Below are positions 1,609-3,278 of a stretch of 5,423 nucleotides of DNA, piece after piece. The notes beneath the pieces were generated by a model. The model ran no database searches. It worked only from the letters and a program-made list of their open reading frames with translations, and had not been told where the DNA came from. The number at the start of each line of letters is the position of its first letter. The stretch's first letter is position 1. This DNA comes from a virus (lineage: Duplodnaviria; Heunggongvirae; Uroviricota; Caudoviricetes), in the IMG/VR virus record IMGVR_UViG_2802429220_000009, positions 1-5,423 of that record, one strand, 5' to 3'. The translations under genes and the position numbers were made by a program.

Positions 1609-1764
1609 TTACTCCTCAGGTTCGTAAGCTGTGAAGACAGTGACCTCCGTCTGGCCGGTTCGGATTCGTACCTCGCAGAGGTCTTTCCTCGTTACCAGTG
1701 CCGTCACAATGACGGTAATACAGATGACGATCAGGGCGACTAACATCGCCTTTTGCTGCTTCAT
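1609..1764 (-). CDS. hok: Hok/Gef-family type I membrane toxin, 51 aa
   Basis: Internal ATG of track ORF 1609..1821 at 1764..1762 with SD AAGGAGA 7 nt upstream. Product MKQQKAMLVALIVICITVIVTALVTRKDLCEVRIRTGQTEVTVFTAYEPEE is near-identical to E. coli HokD/HokC as I recall them (single transmembrane helix, conserved Cys). Confidence 0.9.
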   Translation of the reverse strand: MKQQKAMLVALIVICITVIVTALVTRKDLCEVRIRTGQTEVTVFTAYEPEE

Positions 1765-1821
1765 AGCCTGCTTCTCCTTGCCTTTCGGCGCGTAAGAGGC
1801 TAACCTACATGTGTCTAGCAT
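1609..1821 (-). CDS. mok: Mok-like in-frame N-terminally extended reading frame (70 aa) coupling hok translation
   Basis: ATG at 1821..1819 in frame with hok, adding MLDTCRLASYAPKGKEKQA; this resembles the MokC N-terminus as I recall it (MLNTCR...KEKRAMKQ). GAGG lies 8 nt upstream. Confidence 0.55.
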   Translation of the reverse strand: MLDTCRLASYAPKGKEKQAMKQQKAMLVALIVICITVIVTALVTRKDLCEVRIRTGQTEVTVFTAYEPEE

Positions 1822-1980
1822 AAAATTGGCCTCAGATTAATGTTAGGCGTCTTGCAGGACGCGTAATGTTAACTGGGGCTTTTCTCTGTCTGCCTTACGG
1901 TGGCATGCCCGAGGCAGACAGCCTCAAGCACCCGCAGCAATTCTACTTAACTCTCGCTTTACCGCAAACCGTTTTTACCC

Positions 1981-2000
1981 GATATGGGAATTCCCATATC
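1981..2000. repeat. Perfect 20-bp palindrome GATATGGGAATTCCCATATC (EcoRI core) between the small-peptide ORFs and the hok leader
   Basis: Positions 1981-1990 and 1991-2000 are exact reverse complements. No U-tract follows on either strand, so it is more likely an operator or RNA structure than a terminator. The flanking bases extend the arms to CGATATG/CATATCG, the same arms as the 638-672 element. Confidence 0.6.
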
Positions 2001-2009
2001 GTAATGAAT

Positions 2010-2114
2010 TCAGTTCCCTAGTCGATCCATCAAAAACACAACCAGGCAGTAAACGCCCACAACAGCAATAACAGCCAGCGCACCTTCCATTGCCAGTGAT
2101 ATATCATCCGACAT
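2010..2114 (-). CDS. Small hydrophobic peptide, 34 aa (predicted single transmembrane helix); function unknown
   Basis: ATG at 2114..2112 with a strong SD AAGGAGGG 4-5 nt upstream; stop TGA at 2012..2010. Product MSDDISLAMEGALAVIAVVGVYCLVVFLMDRLGN. Below the length cutoff of the supplied track. Confidence 0.45.
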   Translation of the reverse strand: MSDDISLAMEGALAVIAVVGVYCLVVFLMDRLGN

Positions 2115-2149
2115 ATTCCCTCCTTTGGTGTTAATCCCGGCGAACGTTT

Positions 2150-2233
2150 TTACCCCCACCGACAAATAACATATACTAAAAAAGCGATAGCCATAGCAAC
2201 GCCTGTAATTGCAAATGCTTCAGGCCAGTTCAT
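2150..2233 (-). CDS. Small hydrophobic peptide, 27 aa (predicted single transmembrane helix); translationally coupled to the upstream gene
   Basis: ATG at 2233..2231 overlaps the stop of the 194-aa gene in ATGA; SD AGGAGG 8 nt upstream. Product MNWPEAFAITGVAMAIAFLVYVICRWG, stop TAA at 2152..2150. Confidence 0.45.
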   Translation of the reverse strand: MNWPEAFAITGVAMAIAFLVYVICRWG

Positions 2234-2814
2234 TGGCGCACCTCCTGCGGCGGTTCTGGTAGCGGCATCCAGTCGGTTACATTGCGGCTCTGTGTTTCGA
2301 AAAATTCATCACCATCACGGACTACATCAAAAAACTCACCGTCTCGATATTGCGCATAAAGAACGAATGCGCCATCACATAAAATAATTACGTGCTGACC
2401 GTCATCCGGCATTCGCTCACTACAGCTTATCCAACCATCCAGAGTTACCGGATGGTTGGTTGACGTTTCCGAGATTTCCCGAAAATTATTGGTTGACGAA
2501 CCCTTCTTTTCCCGAAAGTTTCCAGCCTGAAGCATGGCGGCGCTGTCTGGCGGGGCAGCATATAGCGGCACGTATATTTCCGGTTCCTTATCAGCACCGG
2601 GTTGCTCTTCCAGTGAGAATGTCTTTCCGGTAAATCGATTCATATAAAGCACGGGCTCTGCTTCCAGCGAAGCCTGAGCAACAAGGGCCAGTGCTAAATC
2701 CAACTCAATTGCCTCGAGAGAATTTTTGAATGCTGTCTGTTTTACTGCAAATTTCATCGCCTTTACATTTTCACTAACATGACTGATTAACTGCTCTTTT
2801 GTAAAAGTGGTCAT
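2230..2814 (-). CDS. Hypothetical prophage protein with a DUF551-like C-terminal domain, 194 aa
   Basis: Track ORF 2230..2943 trimmed to the ATG at 2814 (MTTFTKEQ...), which has SD AAGGAG 7 nt upstream; the longer frame would overlap the preceding gene. C-terminus WISCSERMPDDGQHVIILCDGAFVLYAQYRDGEFFDVVRDG...VTDWMPLPEPP fits my recollection of DUF551. Confidence 0.8.
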   Translation of the reverse strand: MTTFTKEQLISHVSENVKAMKFAVKQTAFKNSLEAIELDLALALVAQASLEAEPVLYMNRFTGKTFSLEEQPGADKEPEIYVPLYAAPPDSAAMLQAGNFREKKGSSTNNFREISETSTNHPVTLDGWISCSERMPDDGQHVIILCDGAFVLYAQYRDGEFFDVVRDGDEFFETQSRNVTDWMPLPEPPQEVRQ

Positions 2815-2870: not shown

Positions 2871-3263
2871 TCACAGTACCGCCTCCTGAAAATTCCCCTG
2901 ATAGAAAGCCAGCACACGCTGCATAACTTCGCTCTGGCGGCACTCACGACAAATTATGTTCTGCCGTCTGTTGTAACGACGTATTTCTCCGTCAGGTAAC
3001 TTTCGAATCAGTGTCGGGTCAGCAGCCTTCTCCGGTGTCTTACGCCATACGCGATACGCCTGCTCTGATGGAAATACCCCGCAATCAGAGAGCCAGACAT
3101 CACCACTGGCCGCAAGCGCACCAGATAAACGACGAATAGCGGTCTTACTGACACCCGTTTTATCTGCCAGTTGTCGAAAAGTTTCTCGTCCGCTCAGGCG
3201 CACGAATTCCACAATGCGCGCCTTCACTTCTTCCCGCTCTTCTGGTGTAAATACTTTTGCCAT
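2871..3263 (-). CDS. Hypothetical HTH-containing protein, 130 aa
   Basis: ATG at 3263 (MAKVFTPEER...) with SD GGAGG 5 nt upstream; the track's TTG start at 3278 is rejected. HTH-like segment ETFRQLADKTGVSKTAIRRLSGAL; a CxxC pair (CRECRQ) near the C-terminus. No family recognised. Confidence 0.7.
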   Translation of the reverse strand: MAKVFTPEEREEVKARIVEFVRLSGRETFRQLADKTGVSKTAIRRLSGALAASGDVWLSDCGVFPSEQAYRVWRKTPEKAADPTLIRKLPDGEIRRYNRRQNIICRECRQSEVMQRVLAFYQGNFQEAVL

Positions 3264-3278
3264 AAGCGCCTCCGGCAA

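Follow-up and report, generated by a model that had tools for sequence, protein, structure and literature searches.

Two short open reading frames (ORFs), here named ORF1 and ORF2, lie in tandem on the minus strand of a 5,423-nucleotide stretch of the Caudoviricetes record IMGVR_UViG_2802429220_000009 (hereafter the window, meaning the whole stretch of DNA that was analysed), and our analysis indicates that both are likely to be genuine genes for very small single-pass inner-membrane peptides. ORF1 would be a mobile unit and ORF2 a separately acquired cassette, with both products serving as partner-binding accessory factors. The window is a segment of an Escherichia coli lambdoid prophage, 100% identical over the 551 bp compared to E. 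coli O10:H32 NMBU-W12E19, and its minus-strand genes run in the order O-like gene, IstB/DnaC-like replication gene, DUF1627, DUF977, DUF551, ORF1, ORF2 and mok/hok/sok. An initial annotation, made from the letters of the DNA, had placed a 27-residue and a 34-residue ORF at 2010-2233, at the end of an operon and directly upstream of hok. Both ORFs are present there on the minus strand, and together they form the distal end of the replication/DUF1627/DUF977/DUF551 operon. The elements that define the pair are as follows.

2233..2150, minus strand: ORF1, encoding the 27-residue peptide MNWPEAFAITGVAMAIAFLVYVICRWG; its ATG (2233-2231) overlaps the DUF551 TGA (2232-2230) as ATGA
2240..2246, minus strand: ORF1 Shine-Dalgarno sequence (SD) AGGAGGT, 6 nt before the ATG and within the last DUF551 codons
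2114..2010, minus strand: ORF2, encoding the 34-residue peptide MSDDISLAMEGALAVIAVVGVYCLVVFLMDRLGN (WP_001278450.1, ECs_5710, XECs145); begins 35 nt past the ORF1 stop
2119..2125, minus strand: ORF2 SD AAGGAGG, 4 nt upstream of the ATG; kept in 84 of 86 ORF2 loci, with AGGGAGG in the other two

The near-consensus SDs, the ATGA overlap of ORF1 with the upstream stop codon and the single predicted transmembrane helix in each product, all of which the initial annotation had reported, are therefore present as described. ATG-initiated ORFs of at least 25 codons with a correctly placed SD-like motif number seven in the window, and because five of these are established genes and the remaining two are ORF1 and ORF2, we regard the pair as confirmed beyond chance. 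Each peptide contains one hydrophobic stretch of 17-19 residues, with a Kyte-Doolittle 17-residue maximum of 2.48 for ORF1 and 2.95 for ORF2 and Hessa-scale sums of -1.6 and -3.0, respectively.

ORF1 across phage and host genomes

Sequence comparison places ORF1 in a conserved Escherichia/Shigella phage family that is usually missed by annotation. The family motif is M-x-W-P-[ED]-A-F, followed by ~14 hydrophobic residues and then Y-x-I-C-R-W-G, and three clades that differ by ~25% at the nucleotide level all keep M-x-W-P-[ED]-A-[FI]…G…Y-x-I-C-R-W-G. Homologues are found by tblastn in 92 GenBank phage records (among them 933W, VT2-Sakai, BP-4795, Min27, YYZ-2008, Av-05 and P1-like phage-plasmids), IMG/VR holds 576 relatives, and about one in four complete E. 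coli genomes carries the gene. A scan across GTDB species returned E. coli and Shigella only, apart from one Segatella copri contig from a metagenome-assembled genome, which we take to be mis-binned, and one spurious match (L021). A HMMER search with a 40-residue ORF1 homologue returned four proteins.

We assembled 176 loci with a recognisable ORF1 copy from IMG/VR, GenBank phages and E. coli/Shigella genomes, among which there are 51 distinct alleles of the 84-nt sequence. The ATGA overlap is kept in 173 of these loci and an SD-like motif in 165; a premature stop occurs in a single locus (L007), and changes in length take the form of in-frame 6-nt deletions in two separate lineages. Between clades, the proportion of synonymous differences (pS) is 0.5-0.78 and that of non-synonymous differences (pN) is 0.05-0.26, giving ratios of non-synonymous to synonymous substitution (dN/dS) of 0.06-0.24, and Fisher tests on synonymous versus non-synonymous changes yield p = 4e-6, 1e-3 and 8e-5. 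The other two reading frames over the same nucleotides give between-clade ratios of ~0.8-4.4. The initial annotation had proposed examining homologous prophages for conservation of both reading frames; that of ORF1 is conserved across this set, as is that of ORF2 across its own loci, described below.

Similarity between ORF1 loci stops at the stop codon, beyond which lie ORF2 and hok, hok directly, a convergent ParDE pair, an intrinsic terminator or DUF4222-xis-int. On its other side ORF1 is preceded by DUF551-type, Ea22-like and at least two other C-termini, and a ~20-nt SD-ATGA junction, CAGGAGGTG...CAATGA, moves with ORF1 behind these differing upstream genes. ORF2 accompanies ORF1 in 86 of the 176 loci and is absent from 90, of which 33 run from ORF1 directly into hok and 57 have neither ORF2 nor hok.

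The description of both ORFs as unannotated fails for ORF2, which RefSeq lists as WP_001278450.1 and which is ECs_5710 in prophage Sp6 of E. coli O157:H7 Sakai, and mostly stands for ORF1. The 27-residue form of ORF1 is not annotated by RefSeq at any locus inspected, Sakai Sp6 and 933W included, and is called by few GenBank submitters (ETJ68712.1, AOM45384.1); the 40-residue homologue, which is the clade C form, is annotated as WP_255625547.1. A group of 121-residue "DUF551" proteins clustered with ORF1 as apparent DUF551-ORF1 fusions, but these are ordinary DUF551 proteins and the grouping is a clustering artefact. An ORF1 relative (L015, 590-690) on unitig_3, a 97-kb plasmid from E. coli AR_0119 that we take to be P1-like, has ATA replacing the usual ATG, an in-frame upstream ATG (METGGEVISWPEAF…) and a differing C-terminus, …AAIFIFWG; this relative is unannotated and lies between two annotated genes.

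ORF2, its cassette and a 29-residue relative

ORF2 is the same gene as XECs145, which Hücker et al. 2017 (PMC5597208, S2 Table) list as a translated novel small gene with a predicted inner-membrane product; the copy in Sakai Sp6 encodes the identical 34 residues in the context DUF551, ORF1, ORF2, mok/hok. In the uninduced Sakai lysogen grown in lysogeny broth (LB), XECs145 has a transcriptome value of 79.1 and a translatome value of 346.1 reads per kilobase per million mapped reads (RPKM), a ribosomal coverage value (RCV) of 4.35 and a coverage of 0.99, and in brain heart infusion (BHI) its RCV is 1.14 (PMC5597208). The ribosome footprints in a lysogen that the initial annotation had called for are thus already in print for ORF2. 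The same survey modelled XECs145 as a 54-residue protein by taking, by design, the farthest-upstream start (ATA); checked against the sequence, this model contains ORF2, and the SD-led ATG gives 34 residues. In a predicted fold of the minus-strand transcript, the ORF2 SD (AAAGGAGGG, ~2119-2126) pairs with a CUUUUUU run within ORF1 (~2170-2180), a pairing that, if it forms, could tie ORF2 translation to ribosomes passing through ORF1.

Among the 86 ORF2-bearing loci the ORF is uninterrupted in every one (85 full-length, one two codons short), pN/pS is 0.22 in frame versus 0.90 and 2.18 out of frame, and recurrent polymorphisms either fall at third positions or are conservative hydrophobic-to-hydrophobic exchanges. 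Of 5426 complete E. coli genomes, ~670 carry the ORF2 region, and ORF2-family loci in IMG/VR number ~394. Isolated phage genomes lack the region, their only counterpart being a 29-residue relative, ORF2b (VLVLKCALAIAAVMAIYCLAVVLMDRLSD), which mEp460-like phages carry and which starts at GTG with a conserved GGAGG. The ORF2 and ORF2b lineages share 67% identity and ~33% of their aligned nucleotide positions differ; the ORF2b stop lies ~8 nt from the hok -35 box, and hok follows at a fixed distance in 78 of 82 loci (210-211 nt to the hok ATG). An exhaustive HMMER search with ORF2 against 1.84 billion representatives found close E. coli relatives only and none more distant. In phage HannyBb (L181, 1408-1697), two small annotated coding sequences on the opposite strand overlap the conserved SD-led GTG ORF2b gene and are probably mis-calls.

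The segment that separates ORF1 from hok has the following parts.

2145..2155, minus strand: 11-bp direct repeat GGGTAAAAACG, left copy, spanning the ORF1 stop codon; left edge of the ORF2 cassette
1970..1980, minus strand: 11-bp direct repeat GGGTAAAAACG, right copy, where the 175-bp ORF2 cassette ends on the right
1980..2001, no strand assigned: perfect 22-bp palindrome CGATATGGGAATTCCCATATCG, with an EcoRI site inside, just past the ORF2 stop and without a U-tract
1940..1967, minus strand: putative hok promoter, -35 TTGCGG (1967-1962), 16-nt spacer and -10 TAGAAT (1945-1940), read from the sequence

Relative to phages that lack ORF2 (L007, L008, L013, L018 and 933W), in which ORF1 meets the hok promoter directly and the junction reads …TGGGGATAAAAACGGTTTGCGG…TAGAAT, the window carries an extra 175 bp comprising the ORF2 SD, ORF2 and the 22-bp palindrome. 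Because this is a discrete insert between direct repeats that is absent in collinear phages, we regard ORF2 as a moron-like cassette, and the 11-bp repeat has the look of a target duplication or of microhomology for cassette insertion or deletion. The putative hok promoter adjoins the downstream edge of the cassette, with the Rfam sok/hok RNA match beginning at 1933, and a promoter scan of locus L182 gives an equivalent hok promoter, TTGGCG-17-TAGAAT. The palindrome is not strictly conserved as a hairpin, as four loci (L003 to L006) carry uncompensated changes, and it may serve to stabilise an RNA 3' end or to bind a protein, or may be a scar of recombination. Between 2000 and 2400 the minus strand has no sigma-70-like site and only one weak terminator-like match, which lies inside ORF2. 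A structured RNA over 1960-2260 was considered and rejected, the folding z score of -2.4 stemming largely from the palindrome.

A proposed membrane role and its rivals

We propose that ORF1 moves as a unit with its own SD-ATGA junction and would be translated by coupling to whatever "ea"-type gene precedes it, most often DUF551. ORF2, which has a strong SD of its own and is translated in uninduced lysogens, would have been acquired separately, on a cassette that entered between ORF1 and the hok promoter. Each peptide is expected to insert as one transmembrane helix, the favoured topology placing a short acidic N-terminus outside and an Arg-containing C-terminus inside. By analogy with other bacterial and phage peptides of fewer than 50 residues, each probably binds a larger host or phage membrane protein, which would make the two peptides accessory, lysogen-fitness or exclusion-type factors and not lysis proteins or type I toxins.

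MgrB, MgtS, PmrR, AcrZ, CydX and KdpF are small single-pass inner-membrane regulatory proteins of enterobacteria. ORF1 and ORF2 resemble this class in having fewer than 50 residues, one helix, an SD of their own and a position at an operon end or in an intergenic gap missed by annotation, and, by analogy, they may also resemble it in acting through a larger membrane protein. They differ from it in that they have no sequence homology to any member and are phage-borne rather than part of the core genome. Both combine the general marks of small single-pass membrane proteins, namely a length below 50 residues, one helix of membrane-spanning length and purifying selection. Neither peptide matches a family in Pfam, NCBIfam, PHROGs or PADLOC, in which only sub-threshold noise (PTR2, SecE, Cmr5) was returned; against the PADLOC defence families, ORF1, the DUF551 protein and the 40-residue homologue have no match and ORF2 has only a spurious one (Cmr5, E 0.023). 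Neither the peptide sequences nor the WP accession turned up in a full-text literature search, the Enterobacteriaceae microproteome supplements contain neither peptide, and a preprint on small proteins of uropathogenic E. coli (UPEC) has no bearing on either.

Phage morons are small accessory gene cassettes between conserved phage genes. ORF2 is like them in lying on a discrete 175-bp repeat-bounded insert, in being absent from otherwise collinear phages and in being expressed in the lysogen, and is unlike them in that no convincing promoter or intrinsic terminator of its own was found, the trailing palindrome lacking a U-tract. Taken by gene, ORF2 is an already known hypothetical, translated small protein, and ORF1 adds a new, under-annotated member to the class of small membrane proteins.

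Several observations weigh against this assignment. Within the shallow clade to which the window belongs, ORF1 changes are mostly non-synonymous (in one pair, 4 non-synonymous to 1 synonymous), and the common O157:H7 allele of ORF1, MIWPEAFAITGVAIAIDFLVYVICRWG, which is found in 25 loci (Sakai Sp6, L267 1044-1127, and L010 and L011 among them), places an Asp midway along the helix. Either this variant is functional or it signals that constraint has relaxed in that lineage; given both observations, the constraint on ORF1 may be relaxed in some lineages. At 27 residues, ORF1 also falls below the 30-residue cut-off of the ribosome profiling (Ribo-seq) survey (PMC5597208), and what bears on its translation is its SD, the ATGA coupling and purifying selection. 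For ORF2, diversity is low (17 alleles, with divergence no more than ~10%) and the selection signal is therefore weaker than that of ORF1; a crude codon-position tally gives p = 0.06 only, the comparison of ORF2 with ORF2b is not frame-specific (pN/pS ~0.5 in two frames), and Ribo-seq reads in Sakai's repeated prophages may multi-map. Membrane insertion is, for both peptides, a prediction.

The same features have to be weighed under other explanations. The initial annotation pointed out that small membrane peptides of prophage accessory regions are often toxins, holin-like proteins or exclusion factors; such roles are without direct support for ORF1 or ORF2, and we somewhat disfavour them. It strikes us as unlikely that one peptide or both would act as a membrane-damaging toxin, type I-like or holin-like, whose expression would depolarise the inner membrane or make it permeable. 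Both are indeed small hydrophobic single-helix peptides that adjoin a bona fide type I toxin locus, hok, and have other toxin-antitoxin modules nearby, and their hydrophobicity is comparable to that of Hok, though lower. However, searches of Pfam, NCBIfam, PHROGs and PADLOC match neither of them to a toxin or holin family, and against HOK_GEF, Ldr, Ibs, TisB and similar toxin families neither gives a match at E up to 1, whereas the neighbouring Hok matches at 2.9e-22. Unlike Hok/Gef, the two ORFs have no detected mok-like leader, fold-back mRNA or Sok-like antisense RNA: the Rfam scan here finds sok at 1759-1933 only, with no element over 2010-2233, and antisense promoter-like sites are at chance level (3 found versus 2.0±1.2 expected). 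The peptides are also shorter than Hok/Gef, with almost no soluble tail, and their C-terminal tails of 4-5 residues (CRWG, DRLGN) fall short of the charged cytoplasmic tail that marks holins. Holin genes sit beside an endolysin or spanin gene in a lysis cassette, whereas the neighbours of the two ORFs are replication, DUF1627, DUF977 and DUF551 genes and hok, with no lysis genes in the window. Finally, for ORF2, the RCV of 4.35 in healthy growing lysogens and the strong unmasked SDs argue against tight repression or strong toxicity.

The position of ORF2 raises the further idea of a functional tie between ORF2 or ORF2b and the neighbouring hok/sok locus, with the peptide modulating Hok in the membrane or read-through into the hok promoter tuning hok/sok. 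In both of these lineages, which are at 67% identity, an ORF2-family gene comes directly before the hok promoter, as seen in 69 of the 86 window-type loci and in 78 of the 82 ORF2b loci, and in the latter the spacing to hok is fixed, as described above. Simple physical linkage of a small module explains this pattern; many hok loci have no ORF2-family gene, the 33 loci noted above run ORF1 directly into the hok promoter, and ORF2 is also found with an IbrB-like gene replacing hok, such that we hold a functional tie to be quite improbable. To our knowledge, classical hok/sok loci have no ORF2-like gene. We give just as little credence to the proposal that ORF2-family peptides are a third protein component of some phage hok/sok loci, modulating Hok or hok/sok expression, while ORF1 is a membrane partner coupled to DUF551/Ea22-type early proteins that tethers or regulates them at the membrane.

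It is very unlikely that the ORFs are non-functional, that is, chance or recent ORFs translated by way of SD-like sequences whose conservation reflects the youth of shared prophage DNA. The narrow taxonomic range (Escherichia/Shigella phages only), the divergence of at most ~10% among ORF2 alleles, the mostly non-synonymous changes within ORF1 clades, and the Asp-in-helix alleles, premature stop (L007) and altered starts (L015, L018, L077) are what such a history might leave behind. Yet ORF1 clades at ~75% nucleotide identity keep the peptide while synonymous change is near-saturated and dN/dS is low (0.06-0.24) in that frame alone, indels are in-frame, and the start, SD and stop are kept across unrelated flanks; for ORF1 this explanation is strongly disfavoured. 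ORF2, for its part, shows a frame-specific deficit of non-synonymous change.

We also considered whether ORF1 and ORF2 are fused by programmed -1 slippage at the G-run of the ORF1 stop (UGG GGG UAA) into a 74-residue two-helix protein, which appears extremely improbable. The extended frame of ORF2 is -1 relative to ORF1 and open through a 13-codon linker, although by our own calculation a linker of this length would be open by chance about half the time. Fusion proteins of 74 or 70 residues do occur in the protein database (P0001-P0004), through one extra G in the G5 run or a T-run change, but they come from one or two contigs each, and homopolymer sequencing errors or mutants are the simpler account. 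Moreover, no canonical slippery heptamer or downstream stimulator is found at the ORF1 stop, ORF2 has its own strong SD and ATG, a 34-nt spacer in L076 alters the relative frame of the two ORFs, and 90 of the 176 ORF1 loci have no ORF2. The 74-residue fusions were accordingly rejected as proof of programmed frameshifting and are regarded as rare homopolymer variants. As to how they arise, an extra G in TGGGGGTAA (the G5 run, 2150-2158) joins ORF1 to ORF2 via a 13-residue linker, and in P0003 and P0004 the ORF2 frame is reached by earlier shifts inside ORF1, in P0003 by the T-run change.

Gene neighbourhood and significance

Two neighbours flank the pair on the same strand.

2230..2814, minus strand: DUF551-domain gene upstream of ORF1 (Pfam DUF551, E 1.3e-20; RefSeq annotation), with an SD-led ATG at 2814
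1609..1933, minus strand: hok/mok/sok type I toxin-antitoxin locus, mok at 1821-1609 and hok at 1764-1609 (Pfam HOK_GEF, E 2.9e-22)

The hok locus, with its Rfam sok/hok RNA match (1759-1933, 115 bits), lies directly downstream of the small ORFs, in keeping with the placement given by the initial annotation. Further upstream, an SD-led 130-residue ORF at 2871-3278 (minus strand) matches the full DUF977 model (positions 1-134); the DUF977 gene of NMBU-W12E19 (L001, 2634-3030) is flagged as frameshifted by the Prokaryotic Genome Annotation Pipeline (PGAP). Convergent with hok, a plus-strand RelE-family toxin gene (Pfam RelE, E 1.7e-46) and an HTH_3 antitoxin gene are joined by an ATGA-type coupling overlap (825-1506), and a hairpin resembling an intrinsic terminator stands at 1540-1523 (minus strand) between hok and this pair. 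A further minus-strand region (533-734 and 1-480) contains C4 antisense RNA (78 bits) and isrK (73.5 bits), both identified by Rfam, with a c4-a1b1 target element near threshold (46.1 bits versus a gathering score of 46.7). These elements lie directly upstream of a minus-strand ORF6N-domain gene that runs off the window; reading that gene as an antirepressor, the C4/isrK elements and ORF6N together resemble the IsrK/C4 modules of P1/P7 or Gifsy type that control an antirepressor.

As no evidence of a new mechanism emerged, the value of these findings lies mainly in annotation and as a starting point for experiments. ORF1 is a selection-constrained gene of 27 codons that resides in well-studied Shiga-toxin phages (933W, VT2-Sakai, BP-4795 and Min27) and yet, in its 27-residue form, is omitted by RefSeq. 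Annotating ORF1, together with the correct 34-residue model of ORF2, would provide phage biologists with two candidate small membrane effectors from prophages of enterohaemorrhagic E. coli (EHEC), and the finding that such peptides repeatedly abut hok promoters offers a cheap, testable lead.

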